A stretch of 26,349 nucleotides of DNA from Candidatus Thorarchaeota archaeon (GTDB taxonomy: Archaea > Asgardarchaeota > Thorarchaeia > Thorarchaeales > Thorarchaeaceae): NCBI GenBank assembly GCA_046482545.1, contig JAWOEX010000041.1:1-26349 (forward strand), written 5' to 3'. Under the pieces are notes generated by a model. The model was not told where the DNA came from, ran no database searches, and saw only the letters and a program-made list of their open reading frames with translations. Every line of letters begins with the position of its first letter. Position 1 is the stretch's first letter. The position numbers and the translations under genes are program-made. Positions 962 through 20,365 of the stretch are shown here, piece by piece.

Positions 962-1201
962 TCAGTCTAGGTAACCAAGTGCTTTCAATCTGTCTTTGAC
1001 CTTTTTCTCATCTTCTTTTGTGAATGGATTTTCTGTGTCTTCTTCTTCTCTGTTTGCGATTATTTCGCGCAAGACATAGGTCACATAGCTCGATACAGAT
1101 GTGAAACCCGTTCCTTCAATTCGCTCCTCGATTTTGTTAAAAAGCGGAACTGGAACCGAGACCGATGTGAATTTCCCTGTGCGTTTCTTACCCTTCGCCA
1201 T
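962..1201 (-). CDS. CopG/ribbon-helix-helix DNA-binding protein with C-terminal RLKALGY tail
   Basis: FTSVSVP beta ribbon followed by two helices (GFTSVSSYVTYVLRE); 79 aa. Confidence 0.85.
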   Translation of the reverse strand: MAKGKKRTGKFTSVSVPVPLFNKIEERIEGTGFTSVSSYVTYVLREIIANREEEDTENPFTKEDEKKVKDRLKALGYLD

Positions 1202-1231
1202 TTCTGAATCACCTAATCATTTATGGTTCTT

Positions 1232-1762
1232 TCAATCTTCGGACAAATATCCGAGTTCTCTTGCCTTATCAAGGATTTTGTTGACGGATTCTTCAATCGT
1301 TTCCTTGTGAGTATGTACTGTAACATCCGGATTGAGCGGCTTCTCGTACGGATCATCGATTCCTGTGAAATTCTTGATTTCACCTGCCAAAGCCTGTTCA
1401 TACAGGCCTTTCGGATCCCTCTCGATGCACACATCAATCGGAGCATCAACGAAGACCTCTATCATATTGGGAATCTCCTCTTTTGCGTAAGCTCGAGTTT
1501 CCCTGTATGGGGAAATGAGCGCAACAACGACGATAACGCCATTACGTGCCAAGAGCTTGGTACAGAAAATAACCCTGTGATTGTGTTCATTTCTGTCTTC
1601 CTTCGAAAACCCAAGGTCTCTACTGAGACCCTGTCGAAGCTTGTCTCCGTCCATTGTCTCGATATAGCGGGATCCCTCAAAGTGTTCGACTAACTTGTTG
1701 GCTATCGATGTTTTCCCTGAACCTGAGTAACCTGTCAACCAAATACAAAATCCATTCTTCAT
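1232..1762 (-). CDS. cysC: Adenylyl-sulfate (APS) kinase
   Basis: P-loop GYSGSGKT, MDGD, LGFSKEDR, ISPY, RDPKGLY, FTGIDDPYEKP. Confidence 0.97.
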   Translation of the reverse strand: MKNGFCIWLTGYSGSGKTSIANKLVEHFEGSRYIETMDGDKLRQGLSRDLGFSKEDRNEHNHRVIFCTKLLARNGVIVVVALISPYRETRAYAKEEIPNMIEVFVDAPIDVCIERDPKGLYEQALAGEIKNFTGIDDPYEKPLNPDVTVHTHKETIEESVNKILDKARELGYLSED

Positions 1763-1765
1763 GTC

Positions 1766-3142: not shown

Positions 3143-3155
3143 CCTTATCACGACC

Positions 3156-4301
3156 TCATTCCACAAAAGGCTCATCAAATTCAAGAATCGTGTCGGCAAC
3201 CTCAGGACGCATCACATCCGGGGGTGGTCGGCGGCCTTCAGATAGCATACCTCGGATTTTCGTTCCTGAGAATATCACGTGTTGATCAGAATCGTGGGGA
3301 CATATCTTATCATTTGCAATGCTGTTGCATTCCTTGCAGTAGAAAAATGAAGCAAAACAAATCGGTGAGATGCCCAAGTCGGGATACTCTTCGAAGATAT
3401 AGTGTGCATCGAGAGGTCCATAGAAATCACCCACCCCTGCGTGATCTCGCCCGACTATGAAATGAGTGCAACCGAAGTTCTTCCGCATGATGGCGTGATG
3501 AATTGCCTCCCTTGGACCTCCGTATCGCATCTCCGTGTGCAGAACAGCTAGGACTGCATACTTTTGGAGATAGTAGTTTCTCATGAGAGTCTTGTAGGCC
3601 CGCAGAATGACCGGATCCTTAAAGTCGCCAGTCTTCTTCTTACCGATAAGGGGATTGATGAAAATGCCATCAATCATGGATAAGGCCGTCTTTTGGACGT
3701 ATTCATGACCAAGATGCGGGGGATTTCGCGTCTGAAAAGCGACAACAGTATGCCAATCTTTCTCTTTGAAGAGAATACGGGTTTCCTTTGGCCGCAATGT
3801 GAAATCGGGATAGGGATTGCCAATTTCGTTGAGTAATCGGACACGCCCCCCCACGAGCGTATCAGCCATATTCATGACCTTGGCAACGCCCGGGTGACGA
3901 GCATCCGTTGTACCGAATACGGATTCGGCAAACTTGGACTTGTCATATTCGTAGATATCTTCAACTTCAAGGGTCGCAGTGGGCGTACCATTGTAGACCA
4001 GTCCAACCATGTCTCCTTCTGTAGTATCTGCAAGCGTCTCCTCATCCACATCGAACACGATTGGTATCGTCCACGGGACGTCGTTGGCAAGGCGGCCGTG
4101 TTCCAAGACCATTTCGAAGTCCACTCGGTTCAGAAAACCATCAAGAGGGCTGAAGACACCATGGGCTATATTGTCAATCTCCTGTGCAATCTCCTTTGTT
4201 ATGCTCATGGTAGGGTACTCATGAAAATTATCGGAGATTCGCTCACTTTCGCTTTTGCTTATTGTTCGTTCTACTAGTCTTCCTCCGTGTGGTCGTTGCA
4301 T
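3156..4301 (-). CDS. sat: Sulfate adenylyltransferase (ATP sulfurylase)
   Basis: PHGGRL, FSPLDGF, FQTRNPPHLGHE, RYGGPREA, GRDHAGVG, CxxC...CPH zinc site, SGTKIR. Confidence 0.97.
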   Translation of the reverse strand: MQRPHGGRLVERTISKSESERISDNFHEYPTMSITKEIAQEIDNIAHGVFSPLDGFLNRVDFEMVLEHGRLANDVPWTIPIVFDVDEETLADTTEGDMVGLVYNGTPTATLEVEDIYEYDKSKFAESVFGTTDARHPGVAKVMNMADTLVGGRVRLLNEIGNPYPDFTLRPKETRILFKEKDWHTVVAFQTRNPPHLGHEYVQKTALSMIDGIFINPLIGKKKTGDFKDPVILRAYKTLMRNYYLQKYAVLAVLHTEMRYGGPREAIHHAIMRKNFGCTHFIVGRDHAGVGDFYGPLDAHYIFEEYPDLGISPICFASFFYCKECNSIANDKICPHDSDQHVIFSGTKIRGMLSEGRRPPPDVMRPEVADTILEFDEPFVE

Positions 4302-4508
4302 AAGTCAAGGCTCCATTGTTCTGATTATGGTGGGACGGTCAGTTCGCATACTGAGTTGAAATCATCTCATGCCATAGTTGGGTGTGGATCAATCTGAGCC
4401 CAACCACGAGTTGCTCTTTTCATGAAGCAAATGGCTGTTCCAAATTCCCTTCTTTGTGTTCAACAGATACACCCTTGTAAACTCTCAACATGCTAGTTGA
4501 TGGGGCCT

Positions 4509-4532
4509 GATTATATTTAATTAAACTTTCGG
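4509..4532 (-). promoter_or_regulatory. BRE-TATA promoter with conserved downstream motif, upstream of sat
   Basis: Minus strand reads CCGAAAG-TTTAATTA-AATATAATC; the same 17-mer occurs at 6615 and, with one mismatch, at 7573. Confidence 0.7.
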
Positions 4533-4599
4533 CCCATTTCATACTTCAATTCAATTTGATTCGATTTTGAACTCAATAGACGACCCTACGAACCACGAA

Positions 4600-5382
4600 T
4601 TATAGTATGATACCGCTTAGAAGAACCCAGATTAATGTGAAAAACCCAACCATTACGATTGACACTCCAACTACCTTCTTCACTACTCCCTGCTCAAGTT
4701 TGGAAGTTGTCAAAGCAGAGAATGGAGAGGCAAGGAGCGCACCAGCTGTTATTCCTATGATCAGGAACATATTAGGGACACCTACGAACAGATAGTAAAG
4801 AAAGAAACCTGCCACGCATATTATACCTTCAACTAGTGCCGTGATTGCAAGGGCTGCACGAGGAGGAATATCGCATAGCATCTGGCCAGATGTTGTTATC
4901 GGTCCATATCCCCCTCCGGATATGCCCTTATTGAAGCCCGCGAGAATTCCCATCCCTGCAATCTTGCCCACTGAGTAATCAATGCACCTATTCCCATTTG
5001 AAAGCGTCAACAAACCCACCATAAGAACTGAAAGTGCAATATAGGTTTTGACAAAGATGGGTGGCAGGACAATATTCGTAAATGTTGATACTGTGACTCC
5101 CGCAAATCCGGTTAAAACAAAGATACCAAGGGACTGTTGCTGTCTCCGGTCATCTGTCAAATCCATGTTATGATATTTCTGGTGAAAACTAGCAGAAACC
5201 AACCCTGCAAAAATCTGACTGAACAGAACTACAGGCACTAGCACCACGGGGTCATAACCCCAAACCACGAGAATTGGAGTGAGGGTAGTCCCATATCCCA
5301 TACCTAAGGTGGCGGCAATATATTCAGATAGAAATGCTACTATGATTAGAATAAGTATTGTAAAAAATTGCATGCTTCTCAT
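4600..5382 (-). CDS. TauE/SafE (TSUP) sulfur-compound transporter, paralog 1
   Basis: About 8 TM segments; ATLGMGYGTTLTP and GFNKGISGGGYGP repeat motifs. Confidence 0.9.
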   Translation of the reverse strand: MRSMQFFTILILIIVAFLSEYIAATLGMGYGTTLTPILVVWGYDPVVLVPVVLFSQIFAGLVSASFHQKYHNMDLTDDRRQQQSLGIFVLTGFAGVTVSTFTNIVLPPIFVKTYIALSVLMVGLLTLSNGNRCIDYSVGKIAGMGILAGFNKGISGGGYGPITTSGQMLCDIPPRAALAITALVEGIICVAGFFLYYLFVGVPNMFLIIGITAGALLASPFSALTTSKLEQGVVKKVVGVSIVMVGFFTLIWVLLSGIIL

Positions 5383-5790
5383 CCCAGAGAACTTATGTAA
5401 AAATTCATGCTGACATATCGGGGTAGTTCATATCAGTATCCCTGATTGTCAGAATCCGTGCGTTTGTATAGCGAATTGACAGCTCATGTGATCTTCTCAC
5501 AAAAATTCTGCCTGTTTTTTCCACAGAACTCAGCCCATGTAAGATTTTTGAGATTCCCTATCCACATATGTGTGTTCCGTTTTTTTCTCAATTAAAACCT
5601 TCTCTTACGTATGTCTTCAAATTCGTTTGTCTAAGGTACTCCAAACTGAATTTAGCAAATAATGCAGGGATTACGAAGTGAAAGTCAAGTGAGATGAAAT
5701 ATATCAGTAGACTGGACATATCTCTATGGCCGGGTTTTGGTCTAGCATGGGTAGCCCCACTGAAAATGCCACGGGAGACGCACTCTTCGG

Positions 5791-6564
5791 TTATACGTAT
5801 CCTCCGGTCAGTACCCATAGAAAAGTGATGAATCCAACAAGAAATGTGCAGGCTGCAATAATCTCCTTCACATGCTGGTCATTGAGCTTGGAAACGGTAA
5901 TTGCAGAAAGGGGAGCTGCAGCCACACCGCCAGCAGTAATCGGAATAATGAATAACAGAGACGGAAAACCACGAATGAATAAATGAATCAGAAAACCAAT
6001 AGCACACAACATCCCCTCGATCAGAGTTGTGATTGCAACAGCAGCCCTTGGCTTGATATCACTGACAATCTGGCCGCCAACTACTATTGCACCATATCCC
6101 CCTCCGGATATGCCTTTGTTGAAAGCGGCTATTGTTCCCATTACCATAAGCTTGCTTTTTGAATACGATATCTCGTGGTTTCTAGTAACAACCATGATCA
6201 CCCCCATGGTCATCACTGCGAGAGTAATGTACATCTTGACTAAGAAACCGGGTAGCGTGATTACTGAAAATGTCGAGAGTAGGATTCCTATCACTCCAGT
6301 TATGCCAAAAATGTAGAACGCGTTCCTCTCTTCCTTATCATCAACTAGATTCATGTTTCTGAATTGGTGATGAAAGGCAGAAGAGACAAAACCAGCAAAA
6401 AACTGAGCGAAAAGGACCACAGGAACTAGGGTGACGGGTTCATAGCCGAGAATAATCAAAGCAGGGGTCAGAATCGTGCCAAAACCCATTCCAACTGTAG
6501 CATCGACATATTCACAGATAAAGGCAACAACTACCAAGACAATGATTGATTCGATCATCGTCAT
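5791..6564 (-). CDS. TauE/SafE (TSUP) transporter, paralog 2
   Basis: CEYVDATVGMGFGT and AFNKGISGGGYG; RBS GAGGAG upstream. Confidence 0.9.
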   Translation of the reverse strand: MTMIESIIVLVVVAFICEYVDATVGMGFGTILTPALIILGYEPVTLVPVVLFAQFFAGFVSSAFHHQFRNMNLVDDKEERNAFYIFGITGVIGILLSTFSVITLPGFLVKMYITLAVMTMGVIMVVTRNHEISYSKSKLMVMGTIAAFNKGISGGGYGAIVVGGQIVSDIKPRAAVAITTLIEGMLCAIGFLIHLFIRGFPSLLFIIPITAGGVAAAPLSAITVSKLNDQHVKEIIAACTFLVGFITFLWVLTGGYV

Positions 6565-6614
6565 CTAATCTCCTCACTGATATAGGCTGATTGAGATAGT
6601 GGTTACGGTTTTTA

Positions 6615-6639
6615 GATTATATTTAATTAAAATTTTGGG
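6615..6639 (-). promoter_or_regulatory. TATA promoter with conserved motif, upstream of TauE paralog 2
   Basis: Plus strand GATTATATTTAATTAAA at 6615-6631, identical to 4509-4525. Confidence 0.7.
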
Positions 6640-6742
6640 AGTGTCTTTTCAAGTGAACAATATGCAATTAGAAGCTTAGGCGTGCCATCGTCTCCTTACA
6701 ATAATGGGTGGAAGGAACCTAAGCCATGAATTCTATCTCGAT

Positions 6743-7516
6743 TCATGCAAAACCTGTAATCAATACCCAAAACAGGGTGACAAGACCAATCGTGAGTGTG
6801 GAAACTGCGACCACATCTTTCACTTGGTGCTGATGAATCTTAGCTATGGTCATTGCTGACAAAGGCGCTGCGATTACAGCCCCAACTGATAGGGAAGCTA
6901 ACATCACAATATCGGGTACCCCCATCCAAACGAGATGAATCACAAAACCTACAATACATATCAAACTCTCAACAAGTGCTGTTATGGCCACGGCTGCTCG
7001 AGGAGGGATATCACTCAGCATCTGCCCGCCGACAGTGATGGGGCCGTAACCCCCACCTGAAATTCCCTTGTTGAACGCTGCAATCAAACCCATAGCAGCA
7101 AGTTTGATAGGAGAGTAAGTGAATCTTCTGTCATTCATCCAAAGCATCACTAGTCCCATCGCTGTAACTGCGGCAGCGATATATATCTCAACATAGATTG
7201 AGGGCAAGACAATCATGGATATAGTAGAGAGGATTACTCCCAGCATACCTGTTATCAAGAACACGAACAGTGCATGTCGTTGCCTTGGTTCTGCAGAGAG
7301 GTGCATATTCTCAAGATTGTGATGAAATATTGAGCTAACAATACCTCCCAAGAACTGACTGAACAAGACAACAGGCACGAAGACGATGGGGAGATACCCA
7401 AGGATGATTAATGCTGGAGAAAGAATGGTTCCAAAACCCATCCCCAAAGTGGCGTCAACATACTCGCAAATGAGCGCGAGGACGGCGAGCAATAGCAACA
7501 CCTCTAACGTTGTCAT
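6743..7516 (-). CDS. TauE/SafE (TSUP) transporter, paralog 3
   Basis: CEYVDATLGMGFGT and AFNKGISGGGYGP; ATG at 7516 preceded by GAGGATG. Confidence 0.9.
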   Translation of the reverse strand: MTTLEVLLLLAVLALICEYVDATLGMGFGTILSPALIILGYLPIVFVPVVLFSQFLGGIVSSIFHHNLENMHLSAEPRQRHALFVFLITGMLGVILSTISMIVLPSIYVEIYIAAAVTAMGLVMLWMNDRRFTYSPIKLAAMGLIAAFNKGISGGGYGPITVGGQMLSDIPPRAAVAITALVESLICIVGFVIHLVWMGVPDIVMLASLSVGAVIAAPLSAMTIAKIHQHQVKDVVAVSTLTIGLVTLFWVLITGFA

Positions 7517-7572
7517 AGTATCATCCTCAAGAGGAAAATCCCACAGCAAAATTTGGGATGTAAACTGTAACA

Positions 7573-7750: not shown

Positions 7751-8104
7751 CTATGTGATGTGTAGAATATCTCCCAAGACCAGCCGAACTCTCGTCAACA
7801 CTCTCTGACTTACCTCGCCAATTATCCCCTCAAATTTCTTTGTAGAAACTGCGCGAATATTATGACAAAGTGCATAAGATTCCTCTCGTAATCCTCCTTC
7901 CCGGTCCATGGGAACGACAGTCCAATAATCGCGTCTTTTTGTGGTTAAAGGAATAGTAATTGCTATGGCTAATTCTTCACTGCCTGGCCCATATTTGGTT
8001 GGCATTGATACAACTAGATTTGGTCTGCGACCTCCCTGTTCATGTCCAACCACAGGATTCAGATTTAGGATAGCTATGTCTCCTGCTTTAGGTGGTTGAG
8101 CCAC
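7751..8104 (-). CDS. Type II TA toxin, MazF/PemK endoribonuclease
   Basis: GDI..LNLNPVVGHEQGGRRP.LVVS, IPLTT, S.ALCHNIRAV. GTG start at 8104 with GAGGTG RBS; 117 aa. Confidence 0.9.
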   Translation of the reverse strand: MAQPPKAGDIAILNLNPVVGHEQGGRRPNLVVSMPTKYGPGSEELAIAITIPLTTKRRDYWTVVPMDREGGLREESYALCHNIRAVSTKKFEGIIGEVSQRVLTRVRLVLGDILHIT

Positions 8105-8259
8105 GGTCTCAGCCCACCTCTTCATCAACACTGGACAAAAACACTCTTTCGACGATTTCTTTATCCTCATTATCCGCAATAATTGCACGGAGTCGCCCTG
8201 TTTCAGGGGCCGCATTGTTCGCTGCTCCAAGCAGGGTTAATTGAGTTAACGTCTCCTGA

Positions 8260-8690
8260 TAACCCGTTTCTTACAGTTTTACCAACTGTATGAAACTCCT
8301 GTGTTCCACCCTTCCCTTGCCCAGCGTCACCGCCATACCGGGGCGCTACCCCCGGCCAAGCAAGGGCTTTGACCGCCATCATGGAGACACGGTCCTTCTT
8401 GCGGCCTCGGCTTCTGTCTCCTGCCCTGACCCGGACACATCACATTCGGGGGCAGCGAGTGTTCCCACAGCTTTTACCACGGCGGGGTTATTATCACTCT
8501 GCCCAGCTTTGTCACCGAAGCTGGCCAGGTCCAATTGGACAAAGCGAACAGCCGCGGACTCTCCCCGGCCTGATGGAGGGCCGTGTGGGAGAGTGAGGAC
8601 TTCTGCTTAGAAGAACCAGTCTTCCTCACAGCCTTCGGGGCTGGGCGCTTCTCCCGTGAGGGAGTGGCCCACCGCCCTAGTCCTACTGGA
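8260..8690 (-). ncRNA. Putative structured RNA (omega-RNA-like) in element copy 1
   Basis: Stems are kept despite sequence change relative to copy 2: CTGCCC/GGGCAG, ACTCTCC/GGAGAGT, CAGCC/GGCTG, CCCTTGC/GCAAGGG, ACAGTT/AACTGT. Boundaries approximate. Confidence 0.6.
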
Positions 8691-8743
8691 CTTCGGTCTC
8701 GTACTGGTTCTAATAAACTCCCCCGCTTGGGTGATAAGAATCG

Positions 8744-8803
8744 TTACAGGAAATCCTACAGATATTTTACATTTTTGCGCCCTGGTTTTTTAGGATTCTG
8801 TAA
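8744..8803. repeat. Helically phased end-repeat array of element copy 1
   Basis: TTACAG at 8744, CTACAG at 8756, TTACAT at 8767 (12 and 11 bp period), plus inverted CTGTAA at 8798; TTACAG also at 8271 near the other end. Confidence 0.7.
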
Positions 8804-9636
8804 GATTTTCGTTACTCCTGAGCCCAATCTCGTAACAGCCTCTCTAATTCATCTAATTTCTCCTCGGTCAAAGATGGTTCTTTAGTCACGAGAAAGGAAA
8901 CAAACATGGTCATGGTCATAAACAACATGATGTTGAAAAGAAGAGTGGCCATTCCATGTTCTTCTGATTTGCTTTCTGCTGCTTGAACAGCATCCGGCAG
9001 ATTGTTGCCTTCAGAAATTGAAATTTCCCGAAATTTATCTCTTAGCTCATTGATGCTGGACCGCTTGGTTTGGTCTGGAATCAAAGGCCACTGTCTAATA
9101 CCAAGAGAAAAAATACTGAGTAGTTTTCTCAGAGAATTAAGAGCGTACGAGAGATTTGAACTCAAAACAGGACCATACAGATTCTCTGTCCTGTCTAGAA
9201 AATCCTCATTGTGAAAGTCATCCACCAAATCCGTCAGCTTTGAGAAGGAGGTCACAGCTTTTTGATATGATTTGTTTATGTTCTGCAACGTCGTTTCGAA
9301 GGAGTGCATTGACTCCTCAAAGACAAGTGTTTTGAGCAAATCCCCGACTTTCTCTTCATTCATCCGATCCAATAATGTCGAATACAGATCATCTTCTTCG
9401 GGATACTCAGTCAAGAAGATGGGAGGTACAAACATGGTTGAAGACAATTATAATTCCCCTCATAGAGTATATGAACGCATCACTATGCCATAGAACGACA
9501 CGCCGCATACTCCTTGAGGAGATATAAAGTATTATGCTCTACGTATGTGCTGTTATTGACATGGAGTTCAAATGACGCCCATATATATTGCAGCTAGAAC
9601 AAATCTATCTTTGAGATAGCTCATAAGGAAACATAC

Positions 9637-10185
9637 TTGTATCCTTCTCGATTTCTACTGCACGAGGGAACCCCACTGAAAGTCACATGGAAAGGATTGT
9701 TCGGGCTCGTTGTCATCCTCATTTGTATAAGTGTAGTGGCGTACTTGCTTTCAAGTATTGAGGGTTTTTTCGCCGGAGTATTGGCGGTATTCATTGGTTT
9801 TCTTATTAGTTTCTTCAGATCGGATATCAAGAGGTATCTTGGACTGAAAGAGGAAGAGGAATCACCCAAAATTGAAGTCAATACTGAAGACAAACAGGGT
9901 CAAGAAGACCTCAAGATTATTCGTAAACTGGAAAAGAAAATCGGGAAACAACGACAGAAGCTTGCTAAAGAAGTCGTTGAATACAATCCAACACTTCCAG
10001 AGAAGAAGAGAAGGAAAGTGGATCAGGACATCGTGGAAGAGGCAACTGAACTCATAGGCTTGCTCGATTCAGCAAAGGGAAGGGCCATTCAGTTGGGTGA
10101 GTCCGAACTCGTTAGCCATTATGGTGAAATCCTTACAGAAATTAAGGAGATACGCCAGAAGGCTATGAGAAGGCTAAGCGAATAG
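9637..10185 (+). CDS. Hypothetical membrane protein (2 N-terminal TM helices, charged helical C-terminus)
   Basis: 182-aa ORF with two hydrophobic segments followed by an E/K-rich helical region; start uncertain. Confidence 0.7.
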   Translation: MYPSRFLLHEGTPLKVTWKGLFGLVVILICISVVAYLLSSIEGFFAGVLAVFIGFLISFFRSDIKRYLGLKEEEESPKIEVNTEDKQGQEDLKIIRKLEKKIGKQRQKLAKEVVEYNPTLPEKKRRKVDQDIVEEATELIGLLDSAKGRAIQLGESELVSHYGEILTEIKEIRQKAMRRLSE

Positions 10186-12131
10186 ATAGGCCCCCAATGA
10201 TTCGGTTCAACCTAGCATATCGATTAGCCAACCCATACTGATTTCATCAAGCCGGTATTGCGGTTAGATAGTTACACCATCTGTTTGACTATCTGTTCAT
10301 CCATCAGGGATAGATTGACATCAATTAGTCAGCATTCCTCTGCTTATTCCACAGATACAGAACTGGAATCGCTACGACAACAGCAGACAGCAGTACGAGA
10401 GGTAATACCCAGTCTGGAGATGGTCCACCATTACCTTGACCCAGAAGCAGATAGGAAATACTGAGTCCATCCTGATTTTTGACAGTGACTTTCAAGGTGT
10501 TGAATGGGGCCACATCAAGGTCGACAATAAGATGTGTGGGTTGCCAATTACGCTGGAACTCAAACGACTCTTCATGTACCTGCGAACCATCCGCAATTAT
10601 GGAGAGGGTGCCATTTGATACAGCGTCTTGCTTGAAAGAATTCCAAACGGACATATTTACAAAGATGCTTCCTGAAGCAGCGTCGAGAGATTGGGAGTCG
10701 ACCTCAATTCGGGGTGCCTCATAGAATCGCTCAAGACGATGCACCCAGTAGTATGTATCGTTACCGCCAGGGATGCGTAATTCCCATGGTATTTCCCCGC
10801 TTTCGGTCACTTCGGTGATGATGACAGGAGATTCTTCTGCCAGAAGAAGTGCCCTATCTCCAAATAGGCCCAGAGTATTCCCGTTTGGAAGGCGATCCGC
10901 ATCGCCCCCAGATGCCGGGAAGTAATATGATTGGTTGTCCGGTCTCCAAGACCAAACCTCCTGCATGATTTTGTTTTCTTCGTCAATTTCGAACTCTACA
11001 AAACCAGAATAACCGGTCGCGTTTTCTAGGTGCATCGTAGAAGGTCGAGACGGATTGTAGAGGTCATTATCATACAGAATGAATCGATTTGGTCCGACCA
11101 ATTCCAAGCTGTGGGAATGAGCCCAAAGGCTGTCAACTGGTGTGTTGTTTGCAGCCAGTACAGTAAAGCTGCCCCATCGACCTGCAGACCACTCGATATC
11201 TTTTGTCGCCCGACTAATTTTCAGAATTATATCTTGATTTCTGAGATTTAGATATACGACATCCTCTTCTTTGTCCCAAACGATGCTGTTAGAATGCATC
11301 CAGTCTGCGCCGCCATGATTGGTCTCATTTGTCCCTAAACTCGAATGAATGGTGGCATTGAAGGGGTATTCTTCTCGTGCATCCCATTGCCAGATCAACT
11401 CACCATCACGGTTATACTCAGAGAGAACATCATAGAGTACTTGTTTTCCATCCCAAATCTCATCCGAGGAAGCATATTCAAGCACCATGAAAGTATCCGT
11501 GTAAGGATTGTAGTCAAACGCATGATGCCCACCAGGGATAGGTAGGGTTTCAGTTGTGCCTGTCTGATAATTCCAAAGCGAAAGATCTCCTTCCTGTCCA
11601 CCCATCAAAACAGTTGTCGAATTGATGAATTTGTGGACGCTGGAAAGTGTGTTATCCATCTGTGCAATGATATCCCCGTTCTGGTCAACGACAAAAAGGT
11701 AGCCTGTTCCCATCGAACGTGTTCCGTTTTGGATCGTAATTTCCACACAAGGAAACAGAGTAAGTCCAGGGGTGTACAAAGAGCTTTGATTGGCTGTTAT
11801 CTGAAATGATATTATTCCCTCACTATCGCCAATGGACTCTCCCGTTAATGTGGCATTGAATATGTTGAATATATCATACACATTCAGTGCCTCGCTAAGT
11901 GGACCCTGAAAGTCTAAATCCCCGTTTTGAAACGCTGCGATTGGAGTCTTCTCCATCTTGACCATGCTCACAAAAACGTCGAAAGACATCGATACAGTAA
12001 TGTCGGCTTCTGAAGGCGTCGATGATGAGGTTTCGATGTCAAGCTCACCATCTGCCAGCTCGTAGATAATACAACCTTCTTCATCAATATCGAGCACAGC
12101 AGTCAGTTCTTTTCCTTCGACAAGATCTTGA

Positions 12132-12565
12132 TAACCCATTTCTTACAGTTCTAGGAACTGCATGAAACTTCTGTGTTCCACCCTTCCCCTGCCAGCGTCG
12201 CCGCTCCCAAGGTACCCGAAGGCCCGTGAGTCAGCAGGGACTTTGTCCGCATTCACTGGAATAGGATTCCTCCCGCGGTCCTGGCTTCTGTCTCCTGTCG
12301 TCGTCCCGGGTCATCACTCCCAGCGACAGCGAGGTCTTCCACAGTTCTTGCCACGGCGTGGTCATGATCACCCACCTCAGCTTTGTCGCCGCCGCAGAGA
12401 TGGCCTATTACAGGCGAGGTGAACAGCCGCGGACTCTCCAGAGCTCGATGAGGCCCCTTGTTTGGAGAGTGGGGACTTCTGTTTAGAAGAACGAGTCTTC
12501 CTTGCAGCTTTCGGCCGCGTGCGTCGTGTTACACCACTAGCCCACTTGCCTAGTCCTACTGAAAC
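12132..12565 (-). ncRNA. Putative structured RNA (omega-RNA-like) in element copy 2
   Basis: Stems CTGTCG/CGACAG, ACTCTCC/GGAGAGT, GCGGC/GCTGC (G-U on the minus strand), CCCTGC/GCAGGG, and a C-UUCG-G tetraloop on the minus strand. Boundaries approximate. Confidence 0.6.
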
Positions 12566-12606
12566 GAAATTTCGTACTGGGCCTAATAAAGTCCTACCGC
12601 CCTCGG

Positions 12607-12680
12607 TCACAGTAGCACTTACAGGAAATCTTACAGATATTGTACACTCTTCCACTCGGATTTTTTAGGATTTTTGTAAA
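12607..12680. repeat. Helically phased end-repeat array of element copy 2
   Basis: TCACAG at 12607, TTACAG at 12619, TTACAG at 12631, GTACAC at 12642 (12, 12, 11 bp period), plus inverted TTGTAA near the end; TTACAG at 12143 near the other end. Confidence 0.7.
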
Positions 12681-13361
12681 ACTTGCCTATTCTTGAACCT
12701 CTGGTGAGTTATCCGCTATGTATTGACAGAAGCTAACGTAATCAGGAATATCAGTCCATGAGAAATTACCCGAGTCCAGTTTTTGTTGAAGACGGGATTG
12801 TATGTCACGTATTCCCTGTGGAGCATCATCCAAGGTAAATGGGTCTGGTTCCTTTGGGGTTAGAATATTGACGATGAAGATGCCAGTTGGAATCGTTATA
12901 ATTAGAATCACTCCAAGGGCTACCAGAGCTTTATTCCGACGCCTCATAAGGAAGCGAACTCTATCACGCCATATGATTCTTGTGAACCACGGGTTGAGCC
13001 TTCAAGCTGAATTCACAGAAAGATGGTATAGCACCAAAATGACGAAGATAGATTCAAATCGACCATAGGTTGAGTGAATACCTCACTTATACAGGCACAT
13101 CAATCGAGAGGTCATTTAATCCATAGGAGAACACGGCCATAATCACTGCAATTGCTGAACAAGAGTTAAATAACGAACAGAGAGCAGCAGAATATTAAGT
13201 ATCGAAAGGAGACCGGTAACCTGTTCTAATCAGAAGTCGTTCAATGATTTGGAAAACTGATTAATCATGCATTTACGAGGTTTTTATGATGGTTTTTGTC
13301 CTCACTGAGAAAACCTCTGAGCTTCTAGAGGGGTTGTGTAGTACAAACAGGTGTAATACTG

Positions 13362-14483
13362 ATGAAAATTAGAAGCAATAAGGATCTAAGCGCGACCGAA
13401 TTCGGTTACCCTCTCTTCATATATTTCTTCGTGAGGTTTTTGAATAACTTCAGCGTCTGCAACGAATTACTGAATCGAATGGAAAACAGGGTATTAGCTA
13501 AAAGGATGGGGAAGGTGAATATTGAATCTCCCATCTACGTAACTGGATTTGCAAGAGCAGGATCGACAATTCTATTGGAAATGCTCAACAGTCACAGGGA
13601 TTTGACATCGCACAGATATTTCCAAATTGGATCGTCAAGCACACCGTATTTTATGAATAGATTCATAGAGAAAGTTCCACTAATGACAGAATTCTCAGAG
13701 AGAGTCCATAATGACAGGATTCGTGTCAACAGAGATAGCCCTGAGGGATTAGAAGAGATATATTGGCAGAATTACTTTGAGAATATATTAGATGAAAATG
13801 AGCCTGACATATTAGATGAAGCTATTAACAATGATGAGTTTGAAAGGTTCTATTCCAATCAAATGAGGAAGTTAATCATTAGTCAGGAAGGAAACAGATA
13901 CGTAGCAAAGAACAATTACGTCATAACAAGAATCGACTACGTTAGAAAGATGTTTCCAAAATCCAAATTCATCATCATGGTTAGAAACCCGATAAATCAC
14001 ATAGCTTCTTTAATCAAGCAGGACATTCTCATCAAAAGGTTGGAAATGCAGGATCCCAGGCTAGTCGATTGGGAGAGCATGGTCGGACATAGGGAGTTTG
14101 GTATTGCGAAAAAATGCATCAATGTGGGCAACAATGTGAGCGAAATTAGATCGCTTTGGAAGAAAGAGGATAGTTACGTCTTGGGATGGGCAAGATACTG
14201 GAGAGAGATATATCAGTATATTCATGAAAAATCCAAGAAGACCAAGGATTTGTTGTTAGTTAGATATGAGGATTTGTGTGAGAAATCCGCTGTTACTATC
14301 GATGGCATCTTCGATTATCTGGCCATTAATGATTATAGTGCAATAAAGAAGAGATACGCAGATATCTTGGAGAAACCCAAGTACTACAACATTTCCTTTT
14401 CGGATGATGAAATGGAATTCATAATCAATGAGACCGGTTCTGTAGCCGACAAATATGGATATGACATAAATGAATCAAGGTAG
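13362..14483 (+). CDS. PAPS-dependent sulfotransferase
   Basis: 5'-PSB loop YVTGFARAGSTIL, 3'-PB motif MVRNPINHIAS, VRYEDL. Confidence 0.9.
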   Translation: MKIRSNKDLSATEFGYPLFIYFFVRFLNNFSVCNELLNRMENRVLAKRMGKVNIESPIYVTGFARAGSTILLEMLNSHRDLTSHRYFQIGSSSTPYFMNRFIEKVPLMTEFSERVHNDRIRVNRDSPEGLEEIYWQNYFENILDENEPDILDEAINNDEFERFYSNQMRKLIISQEGNRYVAKNNYVITRIDYVRKMFPKSKFIIMVRNPINHIASLIKQDILIKRLEMQDPRLVDWESMVGHREFGIAKKCINVGNNVSEIRSLWKKEDSYVLGWARYWREIYQYIHEKSKKTKDLLLVRYEDLCEKSAVTIDGIFDYLAINDYSAIKKRYADILEKPKYYNISFSDDEMEFIINETGSVADKYGYDINESR

Positions 14484-15366
14484 CTTCAAGGTTAAGTTGA
14501 TTTCGTGGGTTTCAGCAGGAAGATTTGTCTTCTTTCCCTGGGTTTTGCTGAACAGTCTATTCGGAGCAGTTCTCGGCAGTTTTCATCTTCTTGATTGGTT
14601 TTTTTCCTTTCTTGTAGCTTTCTCAACACTCACAATGGGGCATTTCATGAATGATTGGCGTGATTTTGTCAATGGTCTAGACAAGATGGATGAGGGAAGT
14701 GAGAAGAAGCCATACACTAATGCACAACAGATTCTTCCAAGAGGTTTACTTTCATTACGCACAGTGAAAATATCAGCTTTGTTTTTCGGGTTACTAGGTC
14801 TAATCATTCTAATAGGATACTTTGATTTCAGTATAGATGCTTACGCGTTCTATCTGATAGGGGTATTGATGGCTCTCACGTATACGGATTTTGCGAAACC
14901 GAAAGGTATTGGAGAAATACACATGTTCTTGGGGCATGGTCTTTCAACTGTGTGTTTTACCTATTCAATCATAAATGGCTTGGACGTGATAGGTTTTCTT
15001 GGAGGGTGTCTACTTGGTTTTTGGTCCGCAGCTGCATATACTGTCGATCAGTGGAAAGACATCCAAGTTGACCAAGATAATGGAATAAGTACGCTTGCAC
15101 ATAAACTTTCGAGCAAAGGGCTGGAACCTTGGAAATGGTGGACATTCGTAGTACTTGGGAGTATGTTCATACAGGCTGCGCTGATAGTGTTCAATGTTCT
15201 ATCAGTAACGACTGCCATAACCGTTTTGATGATACCGCTTGCGTGGCTAGTACATAGGAAATTGAAGCAGAATTTTGATGAGGGTTTATTGCTGGTCTTG
15301 GTGTGCATGTGGGTATATACATCACTTCTGATTGCAGGAATAGCTATTGACATGTGGGTTATCTGA
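14470..15366 (+). CDS. UbiA-family prenyltransferase (MenA-like)
   Basis: Multi-TM protein with Asp-rich motifs NDWRDF..GLD and DQWKDI..D...G..TLA; overlaps the sulfotransferase gene by 14 nt. Confidence 0.85.
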   Translation: MNQGSFKVKLISWVSAGRFVFFPWVLLNSLFGAVLGSFHLLDWFFSFLVAFSTLTMGHFMNDWRDFVNGLDKMDEGSEKKPYTNAQQILPRGLLSLRTVKISALFFGLLGLIILIGYFDFSIDAYAFYLIGVLMALTYTDFAKPKGIGEIHMFLGHGLSTVCFTYSIINGLDVIGFLGGCLLGFWSAAAYTVDQWKDIQVDQDNGISTLAHKLSSKGLEPWKWWTFVVLGSMFIQAALIVFNVLSVTTAITVLMIPLAWLVHRKLKQNFDEGLLLVLVCMWVYTSLLIAGIAIDMWVI

Positions 15367-15542
15367 TTCGTTTATAGATTTGTACGCTTTTGTCAGAAGA
15401 GGCAACAACTGACACGGGCAACCAAGACCGTGGTAACGATATCGCAATCTTTCATCCGAGTTCTTGTTAGTTTCTTCAGGGCCGATTCGAAGACATATGT
15501 CAAAAAGCTTTCATGAAATTGGGCAGATAGAGAAGCTCCACT

Positions 15543-16505
15543 TTATTGGTGTTCTCTCCGCCAATAGTAGATGATTACCAATGCAGCAAGCAGAACAGCG
15601 ACTACTCCACCACTCACAAGATATGGATTCATGGAAGGACTTTCAGCCTGAGTGCATTGTAATGATAGATTCCCTCCGTAAAGATCCATCATGACTGGTT
15701 CAGGTGCAGTCCCGTTGCAGAGCTCCTCATATTCAGGAAAGGCAGGGAATACTACCTGTTGGATATACTCCTGTGATTTCGGAGATGCAAACGCAAATGC
15801 TTCTTCAGCGCAGACATCACCGTTTCCATCAGTGTCTGCAGTTTCGTTCATAAATGCCGAGGTGAAGAAGTGGTTGAATACGTCTCCAAGTACCGGTAAG
15901 CCCTCATCTGTCCCACCAGCCCATGCCAGCTCGTCACGCCCGACAGATCCAACCCGGACTTCAGGGTTATCACCGGGAATTCCTGAAAGCAGTTCACCGG
16001 CATTGCAAGTCGAGAAAGCCATCAGTTTCCTCGCAGCCGGGATTAATTCCCACGTTTGTCCCACAAGGACTCCATTTCCTATGACATCTTTCAGCCAAGA
16101 TCCGTGAGCAAAGACGAAAAACACAACCACATCATTGTCATCAGCTTTCTCCCTGAGCCATTCTAGAGCATTCAACATGCTGGATTCGGTGATGGCTTCA
16201 TTGATAATTCGGATGTGATCTGTAGCCCATCCAAGCGAATGGAGGGTATTGTTCCACTTGGTGCTGTCTGCATGGCCAGTGGGTAGATCTGTCCACCCTT
16301 CAGGATACTGAAGCATTTCCATAATGACCGCCCACCCTTCGTCAGGGTTATCTTGAGCAGATACAGGTTGCATGGATGGTGCAACAGTTCCATAGCTAAC
16401 AAGTAGTATGGCCAATACCAGAGCTGGCATTCGTGCCGTGTTCCTCAAGAACCATTTGTTCACGTACGTCTTCCTCAAGGCTTCTCTGGTCCATTTTCTT
16501 TGCAT
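15543..16505 (-). CDS. Secreted/membrane-anchored caspase-fold cysteine peptidase (clan CD, C13/C14-like)
   Basis: His motif DVVVFFVFAHG and Cys motif FSTCNAG; Ca-loop-like DTDGNGDVCAEE; N-terminal signal and C-terminal TM. The start may be downstream of 16505. Confidence 0.7.
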   Translation of the reverse strand: MQRKWTREALRKTYVNKWFLRNTARMPALVLAILLVSYGTVAPSMQPVSAQDNPDEGWAVIMEMLQYPEGWTDLPTGHADSTKWNNTLHSLGWATDHIRIINEAITESSMLNALEWLREKADDNDVVVFFVFAHGSWLKDVIGNGVLVGQTWELIPAARKLMAFSTCNAGELLSGIPGDNPEVRVGSVGRDELAWAGGTDEGLPVLGDVFNHFFTSAFMNETADTDGNGDVCAEEAFAFASPKSQEYIQQVVFPAFPEYEELCNGTAPEPVMMDLYGGNLSLQCTQAESPSMNPYLVSGGVVAVLLAALVIIYYWRREHQ

Positions 16506-16647
16506 GAAGTAATAAAGATTTCAGCAACTAGAGTGTCGTATGAGATCGATAAGAACAGGGGGCAGAGAATTCTCCAGATGATGTGGCTTTATTTCATAGG
16601 TAGCAGACTTTATGTGATGACATTCAGGTAACGACTTGGTGACATAA

Positions 16648-16959
16648 ATGGAAAAGAAACTAAAGAAATTCTTGGAAGAAGCGAAGGACTGGAAGATGAT
16701 GAAGACCACTGAACCCGGAGTGTTCATCCGGAAGATACCTTCTACAAAGAACAGACCGGCTTCTCTCGCAATAGAAATCAATCCGCCAGATAAAAGTGGG
16801 AATCCCACAAAGAAAACGGGGGTAATGGTGCGAAACCTCCACGAACTCAAAGTTTTCAGGGAAATCCTCTCAAAGGAGATACTCGACGAAGTCATGGACA
16901 CGATTTTGAAGATTGCCCCCCATCAAGAACAAGAGGAAGAAGAAGTCCTCGAGATTTAG
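16648..16959 (+). CDS. Small hypothetical protein, apparently of a conserved archaeal type
   Basis: 103 aa with DW..MKT..PGVFI.K.P and LAIEINP.D..G.PTKK.G and an acidic tail; GGTGA RBS. Function not recognised. Confidence 0.75.
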   Translation: MEKKLKKFLEEAKDWKMMKTTEPGVFIRKIPSTKNRPASLAIEINPPDKSGNPTKKTGVMVRNLHELKVFREILSKEILDEVMDTILKIAPHQEQEEEEVLEI

Positions 16960-17084
16960 GGCTATCCAAGATCGATTCACTCGAGATACTCATTTGGACT
17001 TCAGCCGTGAAATGCATCTGGAACTTGGGCAGGATAATCCATTGAGATTATAGGCAATTGTCATAACTATAACCATGGATAGCA

Positions 17085-17273
17085 ATGGACAACACTACGA
17101 CTATCTCACTTTCAGAAGAGACCCGCGACCTTCTGAAGGGCTATGGCCGGAAGGGAGAAACCTATGACGAAATAATCCGTCGTCTCCTTAAGATAGCAGA
17201 ACAGATTGAGTTTGCTCAAGAGCAGAAGAGAATCCTGGGCAAAGAAGAGTTTGCTCCCTTTGAGCGAGTTTGA
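17085..17273 (+). CDS. Putative antitoxin (RHH-like) of a RelE-type TA pair
   Basis: TTISLSEETRDLLKGYGRKGETYDEIIRRLL; 62 aa; overlaps the toxin start. Confidence 0.8.
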   Translation: MDNTTTISLSEETRDLLKGYGRKGETYDEIIRRLLKIAEQIEFAQEQKRILGKEEFAPFERV

Positions 17274-17576
17274 GGTCTTGTTGTCAGACACAGCATTTTG
17301 CCAACTTGACTTGTTGGGATCTCGGCATGCAGAACGAATCAAGGAGAGGCTTCGCAATCTCAAAGAAACCCCTTCATGGGTCGTTCAGGCGCAGATATGA
17401 AGAAGCTCGTTTCTGTTGGAGACCTTCCGCTCTGTCGATTACGTATAGGAGACTACAGAGCCATCTACTTCGTAGATGGAGAGGAAGTGAAAGTGACCCA
17501 AATGATACATCGAAACAAGGGATACAAATGGTTGGAATGCGTTGTTTCACTCGGGTATTTACTGAAGACCCCATAG
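17260..17576 (+). pseudogene. RelE/ParE-family toxin, frameshifted
   Basis: TTG at 17260 gives SEFEVLLSDTAF..L...AERIKERLRNLKE. After a 1-nt shift at about 17366-17372 it continues PFMGRSGADMKKL...RLRIGDYRAIY.V....VKVTQMIHRNKGY. Confidence 0.8.
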
Positions 17577-17636
17577 AAATTCGGCGCGGGCATCCTTGAT
17601 GCCTTGGTATCTGAGGGATCAAAGTAAAGGGGCCTC

Positions 17637-17960
17637 TCAATTTCCCGGATGAAGAGCAAATCCAAAGTCAGTGAAATGTGAATCGAATGTGAAGACTTCA
17701 TCTACTTACAATGAATTCTTGAGCGCAAAGATATCACAATCCGTAAAACTGTATCCGTAATCTGGATGGTTGCGAAGTATATCAAATGCTTTGCTTCTGA
17801 GCTCCAGTCACATGAATAACTTCAATGGATTCTGAGTTCATAATCGACTCAAAGAGCTTGACAGCAGCATGGTTTACTCTAACCATGGTCAGGGTCGTCA
17901 ATTCGTCCAGTATGTAGTCATTAGGCAACAGACTACCGCCATGTACGCATGAACTAATTG
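17637..17960 (-). pseudogene. VapC/PIN-domain toxin remnant (not in ORF track)
   Basis: Manual translation: NDYILDELTTLTMVRVNHAAVKLFESIMNSESIEVIHVT, then a frameshift at about 17790-17805, then AFDILRNHPDYGYSFTDCDIFALKNSL*VDEVFTFDSHFTDFGF. PIN motifs YILDE, SFTDC and FTFD.HF are present; internal TAA at 17706-17708; N-terminus not found. Confidence 0.75.
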
Positions 17961-18108
17961 CTACGAAAGAGCAAGCTCTTGGTTTTGTCTAGTTTGGCTC
18001 ATGTATTTCTTTTGGGAAATCAAGCCCGATAAGATGGTTTTCTTCCAACCCCAAACAAAAATCACCGACATCCTTATAGTATTTTCATAAAGTACGAAGA
18101 AGAAGAAT

Positions 18109-20094
18109 ATGACGTATGGTGTCGATATGATTTCGATACGAAAAACTATCAAAGATAACTATCAACTCATTATCGGTCTCATTATTTTGGTTATCGACCT
18201 TGCACCATATTACATATTCGGCTATGATACTAACATTGGAATACACGACGCCTACGATAGCACGGTCATTTGGTATGAAGTACTGGCCGAAAGTGGGATG
18301 CTATTCGCACCTAACGATGCAATAGTGCCCGGGATGATGAATGGGCTACCTAGGATATGTTATGGTTCTGAATTCTTTGGGTATCTCTGGCTGTTTCTTG
18401 TTTTTGATCCCTACGTTGCTAGCTTAATCAACATAACACTTGGCTATTTCATTGGCTTTACCGGCATGTACCTCCTCTTGAAGAAACATTTCTTAACTGA
18501 AGATAAGCACGAAATAATCAGAGTTGCTGCAGCTGTCTGTTTTGGCCTTTTGCAGTTTCGGCCATGTGGAGGTCTTGGCCTAACAGTACCAACAGGTCCT
18601 TTAGCGGTCTACGCTTTCCTCAACATTCGCAAGGGTAGTTCAAGTAAGAAAGACTGGGCTGTTCTACTTCTGATCCCATTTGTTGCATCAATAGTATACG
18701 GATACTTCTTTCTCCTGTCCATCATCGGTCTGCTATGGCTAGTTGATATCTTCAGAAAGAGGAGATTCAACAAGAAATTATTTGGTTCTATTCTAATGAT
18801 GGGGATTCTCTTCCTACTCGTGGAATATCGTCTCGTAATCGGAATGCTTCTGCCGTCCGACTACGTCTCGCATAGAATGGCATTCGTACATCCGCCTCTT
18901 TCACTACCTGAAGTACTCAAAAGTGCAATGGTGATGTTTCTTAGGGGGCAATACCATGCAGTTTCACTCCATGGGATAGGAGTATTGCTTGCGATAGTAC
19001 TCGCTTTCGGGCTAATCCTCTTCACTGTAGATAGAAGGCTTCAGGAGATTCTTGTAGGCGTCGGGATCTTAGGTACGATAGCCGCGATGGTTGCTGTGGC
19101 TATCTGGCACCCGATTTCAACACTCCCAGTAATTAATGGAGTTGTAACGCTGCTACCTTCACGAGCCCTCATACCATTGCTCCTACTTGGTGCTATTGGA
19201 GTCGCAGTGTTCTTGTTTTTTATATTTCAAAGCTATCAGTCAGAATCCAAGATTCTTGGAATCGACGTACTTCAAAAGGGGAAGATAGTTCGGTCTTTGA
19301 TTGCAGTTTCGGTTACCACTCTTGCCATTGCGTTATGGTTTGGCGTTTGGCAGTGGAGCATATGGGTACCACTTAAGGATGCATTCGAAATTCTCCGAAT
19401 GCTCCAATTTCATAGGTTCTATAGGCTAGGTCCAATGCTCTGGTACGCCCTTTTTGCTCTTGCTCTGGCAATTATCCAAAGAGGTCCATCATTTAGAAGA
19501 ATACCAACAAACCGAATTCTGGTGTTTGCCATAATTGTATTGCAGATAAGCATAGTATTTCCGTATAACTGGTCAGTAGTTTCCATGAATACGGGAAACC
19601 AAGATAGGCCAGTAACCTACCGAGAATTCTATGCTGAGGGCATGTTTACTCAAATCAGAGATGACATAGGACTTCCCCAAGAAGACTACAAGATTATCAA
19701 TATCGGGATTCATCCCGTTGTGGCTCAGCACAATGACTTCCATACCCTTGATGGCTACATTAACAACTATCCGCTTGAATACAAGCTGCAATTTAGAAAC
19801 ATCATTAGTCATGAACTTGCTAAAAACGAAGATCTGAAGACATACTTTGACCACTGGGGGAGCAGATGCTATACATTCGTGGCGGAACTGGATGGTAACT
19901 TTTTCTGTACCAAGGAAAAAGACTTGTCTATAGAAAACCTTGAATTGAACATTACTGCACTTCATGAGATGAACTGCTCGTATGTATTCTCAGCTGTAGA
20001 GATTCAGAATTTAGAGGATAATAGCCTGAGCCATTTCAATACTTACGAAAAAGCGGAATCAACATGGCGAATCTATGTCTACGAAGTATACTAG
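18109..20094 (+). CDS. DUF6044-like polytopic membrane protein (candidate GT-C-type glycosyltransferase)
   Basis: IHDAYDS, MMNGLPR, QFHRFY, TLDGY..NYPLEYK..FR.II..EL, YFDHWGSRCY; many TM segments plus a C-terminal soluble domain. Confidence 0.7.
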   Translation: MTYGVDMISIRKTIKDNYQLIIGLIILVIDLAPYYIFGYDTNIGIHDAYDSTVIWYEVLAESGMLFAPNDAIVPGMMNGLPRICYGSEFFGYLWLFLVFDPYVASLINITLGYFIGFTGMYLLLKKHFLTEDKHEIIRVAAAVCFGLLQFRPCGGLGLTVPTGPLAVYAFLNIRKGSSSKKDWAVLLLIPFVASIVYGYFFLLSIIGLLWLVDIFRKRRFNKKLFGSILMMGILFLLVEYRLVIGMLLPSDYVSHRMAFVHPPLSLPEVLKSAMVMFLRGQYHAVSLHGIGVLLAIVLAFGLILFTVDRRLQEILVGVGILGTIAAMVAVAIWHPISTLPVINGVVTLLPSRALIPLLLLGAIGVAVFLFFIFQSYQSESKILGIDVLQKGKIVRSLIAVSVTTLAIALWFGVWQWSIWVPLKDAFEILRMLQFHRFYRLGPMLWYALFALALAIIQRGPSFRRIPTNRILVFAIIVLQISIVFPYNWSVVSMNTGNQDRPVTYREFYAEGMFTQIRDDIGLPQEDYKIINIGIHPVVAQHNDFHTLDGYINNYPLEYKLQFRNIISHELAKNEDLKTYFDHWGSRCYTFVAELDGNFFCTKEKDLSIENLELNITALHEMNCSYVFSAVEIQNLEDNSLSHFNTYEKAESTWRIYVYEVY

Positions 20095-20365
20095 CTATCA
20101 CTCCTCCATGAGGGTCATGTCTCTCACAGTAGATACGGGATGTAACACAGGCAATGGAGCTCAACTGCTAGCTCTTTACGTGGAAGCGTTGCATCCGACA
20201 TGTGACTGCTTGAGACATCTGAACAGGAAATTCTTCTATCTTGAACCAGCGTTTCATGATATCACTTTCAACGCGAAGATTGAAAAGCAATCTAAAGTTG
20301 AGCACGATGGAAAGTCCGGTACAGTAAACCGAAGTAGACTTCGATAGAACTGGAATGAACCTGCA

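Follow-up and report, generated by a model that had tools for sequence, protein, structure and literature searches.

The stretch of DNA analysed in this study (the window, 26,349 nucleotides from contig JAWOEX010000041.1 of the Candidatus Thorarchaeota archaeon assembly GCA_046482545.1) carries two copies of a mobile element of about 560 bp, which we regard, with a probability of about 0.7, as a non-autonomous derivative that arose by internal deletion from a Thorarchaeota transposon encoding TnpB and the giant Cas1 homologue aCas1. In this mini-element, a TATA-like module is combined with the two ends of the parental element and the omega-RNA of the parental TnpB. Insertion takes place at TCNNGA; the empty site contains one hexamer, the filled site one on each side of the element. 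The mini-element codes for neither TnpB nor aCas1. Quite likely, it is mobilised in trans by aCas1 that full-length copies produce and that binds to the TCTTACAG motifs present at each end. An earlier note, made from the letters of the DNA alone, had proposed a mobile family that is sequence-targeted and non-autonomous and is mobilised in trans. About 96 loci, and full-length parents in the same genome as autonomous partner, support this proposal; the interior is no filler but a TnpB omega-RNA with a promoter-like module.

The host genome (G000) was compared with those of two sister species of the same genus (G001 and G002); all three are 96-99% complete and carry the element. In the window, copy 1 occupies positions 8260-8815 (556 bp), flanked by TCCTGA at 8254-8259 and 8816-8821, and copy 2 occupies 12132-12690 (559 bp), flanked by TCTTGA at 12126-12131 and 12691-12696. 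The coordinates of these colinear homologs and of their bracketing 6-bp direct repeats had been given exactly. Their overall identity, estimated before at about 70%, is 68-71% (70.9% over 554 columns by BLASTN; 382/563 identical positions in a global alignment), whereas calling the first ~70 bp near-identical slightly overstated the agreement (61 of the first 70 columns).

Read on the minus strand, the mini-element begins with a far end of about 80 bp, in which TCTTACAG-type motifs are repeated, and continues with a 40-bp module, a scaffold of ~390 nt, a hairpin and a terminal GGTTA. In copy 1, the omega-RNA-side end (8260..8298, minus strand) holds the terminal motif, on the plus strand TAAC-N5-TCTTACAG, and the 3' hairpin, whose 5' arm is a candidate internal guide and from which the parental GTTCACTCA loop is gone. 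The omega-RNA scaffold (8299..8688, minus strand), recognised by covariation and by tblastn to TnpB residues 456-559, overlaps a remnant of the tnpB 3' tail and is 86% identical to parents L001 and L003. The promoter-like module (8684..8722, minus strand) has a TATA-like TTTATTA at 8717-8711, 34 nt ahead of the first omega-RNA helix. The other end (8740..8815, plus strand), corresponding to the far end of the 8-kb parents, shows three spaced TTACA(G) repeats, an inverted CTGTAAGA at 8798-8805 and seven lineage-variable terminal bases. The left hexamer (8254..8259), 3' of the omega-RNA on the minus strand, stands singly in the empty sites of G001 and G002, and the right hexamer (8816..8821) is the one that tracks the right-end lineage. 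Copy 2 has the same anatomy: left hexamer (12126..12131), omega-RNA-side end with 3' hairpin and candidate internal guide (12132..12170, minus strand), scaffold with 83-84% identity to parents L002 and L079 (12171..12561, minus strand), promoter-like module with TTTATTA at 12590-12584 (12557..12595, minus strand), other end with TTACAG repeats (12615..12690, plus strand), which belongs to a GCCTAT subfamily terminated by TCTTGA in all three species, and right hexamer (12691..12696).

Both copies split host genes on the minus strand. The gene split by copy 1 (8109..9447), upstream of a PemK/MazF-like gene, encodes 258 aa when rejoined and has no Pfam family; the gene split by copy 2 (10325..12947) encodes 685 aa with SCP2 and arylsulfotransferase (ASST) domains. 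Deletion of the element plus one repeat, the operation proposed beforehand, was reproduced and restores exact frames, namely 777 bp from a TTG start containing WAQETL at site 1 and 2058 bp containing EVQDLV at site 2. A search for empty-site orthologs, likewise suggested before, found both sites empty, ungapped, with a single hexamer and with intact genes in G001 and G002. Empty site 1 in the sister species has 93% identity, one TCCTGA and the WAQETL junction; empty site 2 lies within an ASST orthologue that is intact, and its single hexamer is TCTTGA in G001 and TCATGA in G002. The intact orthologues therefore agree with the reconstructed genes, and many further copies share the termini. Filled junctions are bridged by contigs from public runs, that of copy 1 also by an RNA run from another study, so that the window copies are not an assembly artefact. 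The family is old and diverse, as had been supposed, but the two window insertions need not be old, because they are absent from two sister species and split genes without any other lesion.

A family profile built from 25 copies was run against the host genome contigs and gave 104 matches at about 96 loci on 26 of 45 contigs. These loci sum to 33 kb; 33 of them are near full length and about 60 are fragments, copies differ by 5-30%, and subfamilies of 91-95% identity sit in unrelated flanks. Of 24 other genomes of the host family, 17 also gave matches, and the 16 less closely related genomes searched gave none (18/41 including the host). JGI metagenomes and GTDB contigs, in scans from which near genomes may be absent, contained no exact match to the patterns. 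As target consensus, TCNNGA fits 53/64 right ends with ten different centres; the narrower TCARGA, put forward earlier, covers just 25/64. In two-ended copies from four genomes, the left hexamer equals the right one in 26/45 cases, versus 5.4 in shuffled pairings (maximum 14 in 10,000). Given 104 matches and this number of matched hexamers, the two window copies are not due to chance. Long frames are interrupted by about 8/32 copies, in both orientations, compared with 71% of random TCNNGA sites, which means that insertions in genes are purged; the splitting of host genes thus holds for both window copies but not for most of the family. Shorter forms lacking most of the RNA exist, and two of them (C10:14858 and C22:211201) share a breakpoint at different sites. 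The RNA is therefore not needed for movement, although full forms still dominate. As side observations, a copy at G000:C20:181322-182439 has received another one in its right hexamer, the two being joined tail to tail, one is placed behind a decayed right end (G000:C18:5190), and five have an extra TA between left hexamer and element start (G000:C10:30873, C30:8805, C10:14858, C20:117699 and C9:326600).

Longer copies with the same ends, which the earlier note had suggested looking for, were found, and they encode TnpB. In G000, the left and right ends are 8.2 and 8.3 kb apart at C20:228523-236742 and C28:133391-141685, and in a sister species 7.6 kb apart; all three parents have a perfect hexamer repeat. 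One of the three splits a 331-aa host frame. The open reading frames of the complete elements are TnpB (544-559 aa), aCas1 in divergent orientation (1410-1700 aa) and at most one additional frame of 200 aa. TnpB was assigned by PF07282 above the cut-off, with NF040570 below its cut-off (E 1e-23 to 1e-26), and the 3' tail of the parental gene continues into the sequence retained by the mini-element. Downstream of tnpB, parents and many mini-elements have a variable segment after a conserved T, followed by GTTCACTCA; in both window copies the loop is deleted. The mobilisation in trans proposed earlier gains an autonomous partner in these parents; its candidate enzyme is an Asgard Cas1 homologue and not a classical transposase. 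For most of the long elements in other genera, the motif of this family did not reveal where the far end lies.

Partly deleted parents were also seen: G000:C28:70483-72273 (L005) keeps broken pieces of tnpB and of aCas1, and at C20:190919 and C33:20564 the aCas1 tail is retained together with the far end. A tRNA-Gly(TCC) lies directly ahead of a subgroup of aCas1-TnpB elements (L003 at G000:C23:124177, L064, L065 and L084), of which L064 and L065 have a 45-nt tRNA 3' fragment at the far end, as in integrase islands but without an integrase gene. In L080 (G001:C64), L050 and L052, the omega-RNA end of long elements abuts tRNA-like fragments (T-arm or variable-loop pieces).

The omega-RNA scaffold of ~390 nt has 94 predicted pairs, with 95.4% of the cells paired and double changes in 51/94 pairs. 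Its covariation exceeds all 500 shuffles (0/500) and slid controls (39-46%) by a large margin, kinship between copies inflating the value. The 40-bp module has TTTATTAG at a fixed 34 nt ahead of the first RNA helix, with positions conserved to 85-95%, and a TATA-like box at -33 to -35 is present in 27/41 mini-elements. The module is common to full mini-elements and was not found in the parents examined. One module in all full forms points to one founder, which then spread and later mixed with different parent RNAs. In RNA runs, the depth over the omega-RNA is several hundred times that of flanking genes, versus 20-90 times in DNA runs, with contigs pooling copies and other strains; this enrichment is a weak hint at expression.

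For aCas1, a structural model was made of the first 637 residues on the basis of 96 homologues (predicted local distance difference test score 90). For residues 1-250, the 12 best structural matches are without exception to Cas1 or casposase (Z 12.8-8.8, root-mean-square deviation 3.6-4.2 A, 145-193 residues aligned), and the next matches, to residues 271-605, are nucleases of the Cas4/MGME1/RecB type (Z up to 8.5). The Cas1-type residues E, H and D-x2-D-x2-R are conserved across the 96 homologues, as are E, D and K of the nuclease. Pfam and NCBIfam gave no significant match for the giant protein, and a sequence search of the PDB and the features of the ESM Atlas yielded nothing. Among 86 genomes of the family, 46 contain the gene, frequently as several copies and with up to 16 matches in one, and its named homologues are from Thorarchaeota. 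The name aCas1 reportedly goes back to Makarova et al. 2020, as papers citing that work indicate.

The way in which the element enters its site was analysed by means of the hexamers. Plain duplication of a target predicts that relatives take any central dinucleotide (NN) offered by the new site. Nearest right-end neighbours share NN in 30/64 cases versus 10.4 expected (p 0.0002, with p-values overstated since related elements are non-independent), and right ends such as GCCTAT-TCTTGA recur across three species. Where the two hexamers are unequal, usually the left one departs, and the consensus at positions 2 and 5 is present in 36 and 31 of 45 left hexamers compared with 45 and 41 of 45 right ones. 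Relatives integrated at tRNA-Gly, which contain only TnpB and aCas1, have the same tRNA 3' fragment at their far ends in two species, while the tRNAs of these hosts are not the same. The tracking of NN with the right-end lineage, the departing left hexamer and the element-borne tRNA fragments fit a core that is carried by the element and exchanged with a matching site. From these sequence patterns, the chances of such a core model appear about even. The element would leave with one hexamer, probably as a circle, restoring the site, and would then join a matching genomic hexamer, with some mismatch tolerated; the core would be inherited along lineages and occasionally switch. Whether this reaction resembles conservative site-specific recombination is, in our judgement, similarly balanced; scarless core-matched recombination is known from tyrosine, serine and IS110 recombinases. 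The 6-bp direct repeat reported before is present but behaves more like an inherited recombination core than like a plain target duplication.

Several points weigh against parts of this account. In TnpB, D242 and D437 are invariant and the zinc finger is kept, but the canonical RuvC-II E is replaced (IGRL), with an alternative invariant E403. The Cas1 match of aCas1 covers the catalytic helical domain without the N-terminal beta domain, and Foldseek placed Cas1 at ranks 2-4 for the aCas1 model without significance (best E 0.15). Many aCas1 loci of other Thorarchaeota, several near tRNA genes, lack the ends described here and are without tnpB or omega-RNA in the fetched region (L048, L053, L054, L057, L061, L067, L069-L072, L074-L076, L078, L081 and L082). 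Homology beyond the hexamer is not significant (p 0.10), NN switches in about half of the neighbours, and a lineage-specific target preference with true duplication would also yield NN inheritance, if less simply. Among the eight copies with unequal hexamers, the empty site is readable at C10:49425 alone, the rest being too diverged. No circle, empty joint or spliced joint was seen in the contigs of four runs, which does not by itself establish their absence.

The strongest alternative keeps the same parentage and the same enzyme and assumes casposase-like integration, in which a 6-bp staggered attack produces a true duplication and NN tracks only as a result of hexamer preferences that are particular to each end or aCas1 variant. 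Cas1 chemistry makes duplications, as established for casposase and Cas1-Cas2; the 26/45 perfect repeats include rare hexamers, empty sites are single-copy, and of the two hexamers at C10:49425 and at C34:94043, it is the right-hand one that fits the host gene. Against this reading speak the non-consensus TCTGTA common to three related right ends, the ACAAAG subfamily, which keeps a right TCTTGA while the left hexamer differs in 3/3 two-ended copies, the left-right asymmetry at positions 2 and 5, and the element-borne tRNA fragments in relatives. We give it somewhat less than an even chance.

It is improbable that a host DDE transposase of the IS4/IS5 type, or the Y1 enzyme of G000, is borrowed and that aCas1 and TnpB are cargo. 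DDE_Tnp_1 transposases are present in all three genomes as possible helpers, which also counts against movement by aCas1, and DDE elements typically combine imperfect terminal inverted motifs with a target that is short and palindromic. Yet none of the full-length elements contains a DDE gene, their ends lack the terminal perfect repeats of IS4/IS5, and aCas1 would be cargo despite catalytic residues kept in all 96 homologues and its frequent, often multicopy presence in the family. A Y1 HUH enzyme is encoded by one gene in G000, unlinked to the element, was found neither in G001 nor in G002 and is missing from the parents. The parents also have no serine recombinase. The profiles for tyrosine recombinases, serine recombinases and IS110-type DEDD transposases with a Transposase_20 domain, namely PF00589, PF00239 and PF02371, gave no match in G000, G001 and G002 (PF00239 controls were detected in 12/14 cases). 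As an observation on the genomes themselves, the tyrosine recombinase family PF00589 thus has zero matches in three near-complete genomes; a gene of the Xer type is usually expected in such genomes.

A mobile self-splicing intron or IStron-like RNA, removed from the split mRNAs, would account for the large covarying RNA and for the exact restoration of frames. It is highly unlikely, since Rfam searches up to E 5 gave just chance matches outside the elements and no group I or II intron, the RNA is the tnpB-overlapping scaffold of the parents, no spliced joint was seen in two RNA runs (of thin coverage), and the element occurs in genes in both orientations and is strongly depleted from them. Equally slight is the chance that the copies are domesticated or decaying, immobile omega-RNA loci left by many separate parent deletions: fragments and divergence are common and each window copy is nearest a different parent, but the module that full mini-elements share and parents lack implies one founder that spread, closely related subfamilies sit in unrelated flanks, and the shared module together with the empty sites of the sister species largely refutes the idea.

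Returning to the mini-element as a derivative of the TnpB and aCas1 transposon, we lean slightly towards the view that it makes its own omega-RNA, which would be loaded on TnpB of the parents and favour retention without being needed for movement. Two kinds of guide are conceivable. The flank beyond the end might serve as guide with the hexamer as target-adjacent motif (TAM), so that the vacated site would be cut and refilled, as in IS605/IS607; no TAM-like consensus was found in the flanks outside the hexamer. Alternatively, a fixed internal segment might be the guide; it is complementary both to the end of the element itself and to a promoter site of the parental tnpB. The closing helix of the scaffold stops about 40 nt before the element end, and the following segment is complementary to the element terminus. 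In 22/27 long elements, a site that is laid out like this terminus (TRACCTG, then TTTC or TCTC, then GAGTTCACTC) and is complementary to the omega-RNA 3' end stands just upstream of the TATA box of tnpB. Comparison of own with shuffled guide and promoter pairs among these related elements gave p 0.0002 for duplex energy, p 0.011 for gapped matches and p 0.33 (not significant) for ungapped matches. As a lead, this complementarity suggests self-regulation by DNA binding or by a small antisense RNA.

Upstream of tnpB, a further unit was noticed about 170 nt ahead of the gene between two TATA boxes, consisting of GAGTTCA, 25 nt, GAGTGAACTC and then a copy of the terminal AAACAGGTTA; it occurs in L001, L002, L003, L056, L064, L079, L080 and others, and may act as a target site of TnpB or give a small hairpin RNA that pairs with the 3' end of the omega-RNA. 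The flank of L079 has a 14-nt match to the aCas1 gene of the same element, which was set aside as possible chance.

A more far-reaching interpretation, which we consider doubtful, takes aCas1 as a Cas1-derived, scarless, core-matched recombinase that can be retargeted via six donor bases; TnpB with a fixed internal guide would bind element end and promoter to control or assist it, and the 560-bp elements would be minimal self-transcribing substrates.

The parents are Asgard aCas1-TnpB loci in the arrangement described by Altae-Tran et al. 2023 (PMC10691335) for Cas1H-Asgard-1 and -2, as far as the main text of that paper presents it: an Asgard host, tnpB beside a Cas1 homologue, flanking repeats, and a variable segment between a conserved T and the GTTCACTCA motif downstream of tnpB. 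In the same text, aCas1 is proposed, without test, as the likely transposase in a separate family of transposons. The kind of parent was thus already known, from computation only; new with respect to that main text are the ends, the target, the empty sites, the amplified RNA-carrying non-autonomous derivatives, the lineage-inherited core, the variable segment as a hairpin arm and the complementary site in the tnpB promoter. A literature search, whose scope did not include Makarova et al. 2020 or the supplement of Altae-Tran et al. 2023, found no paper on TnpB elements of Thorarchaeia or on such mini-elements. Aloposons (PMC8813620) were considered for the giant gene and rejected, as size and gene set differ.

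Like casposons (Methanosarcina mazei MetMaz-C1, PMC10359463), the parents have a Cas1-fold integrase with conserved E, H and D as sole candidate mover, a site preference and tRNA genes among their targets; excision of a casposon, with one target copy left behind, was observed in vivo. Unlike casposons, the parents lack a PolB gene, have a 6-bp instead of an about 14-bp repeat and an imperfect 17-bp inverted motif, carry TnpB with omega-RNA, and belong to a family that spread to dozens of sites; unlike casposase, aCas1 is a giant protein of 1400-1960 aa in which the Cas1 beta domain is missing and a Cas4-like nuclease is fused on. As in IS200/IS605 and IS607 (Meers et al., PMC10055086), the omega-RNA borders on one end of the element and overlaps the 3' end of tnpB, and a motif outside one end resembles that at the other. 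The IS605 logic, in which TAM and flank-derived guide direct cutting of scarlessly vacated sites and thereby favour retention (PMC10055086), fits as well. In contrast to these elements, no Y1 enzyme or serine recombinase is encoded, the flanking 6-bp repeats are matched with a variable centre, where IS200/IS605 insert without such a repeat, the scaffold of about 390 nt has an extra 3' hairpin, and the mini-element has its own promoter-like module.

With miniature inverted-repeat transposable elements (MITEs) of archaeal insertion sequences, the mini-element shares short length, lack of coding sequence, high copy number, ends in common with an autonomous partner and flanking repeats; it differs by its conserved RNA-cassette interior, a partner enzyme of the Cas1 type and an imperfect inverted terminal motif offset by one base. 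A donor-borne core matching the target, scarless excision and tRNA fragments resembling attL/attR recall IS110/IS492 and tyrosine-integrase elements, but no such recombinase was found in the three genomes and no covariation of the bridge-RNA type with the target was seen. By analogy, the mini-element may be described as working like a MITE of a Cas1-moved, TnpB-bearing transposon. It is neither a casposon, because of the lack of PolB and the 6-bp repeat, nor a member of IS200/605, IS607 or IS110, because their enzymes are absent, nor an intron.

Asgard Cas1 homologues had been proposed earlier as transposases of mobile elements, and the family now supplies ends, a TCNNGA target, filled and empty sites, and complete parents. 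The 560-bp mini-element is a natural minimal substrate, by which the question of aCas1 as transposase becomes directly testable. The same applies to the question whether a Cas1-fold enzyme can excise and insert via a matched core, which bears on the origin of CRISPR spacer integration from mobile elements. With the family, a further TnpB branch comes to light, which has a large covarying RNA and possibly a self-directed guide, and in the host about 1% of the genome consists of unannotated elements that break host genes.

In the surroundings of the two copies, the PemK/MazF-like toxin gene (7751-8230, minus strand) lies directly downstream of the gene split by copy 1, and the orthologue of the split gene in a genome of another genus (G048) is followed just downstream by an independent copy of the mini-element, at L021:812-1373. 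Inspection by eye showed a sulfate activation cluster at 92-7549 (minus strand) with a CysQ-like phosphatase, an adenosine phosphosulfate (APS) kinase, a sulfatase-like protein, an ATP sulfurylase and three tandem TauE-like permeases. Positions 13362-25868 contain sulfotransferase-like, UbiA-like, epimerase, glycosyltransferase and nucleotide-sugar genes, which suggests a surface polysaccharide region.

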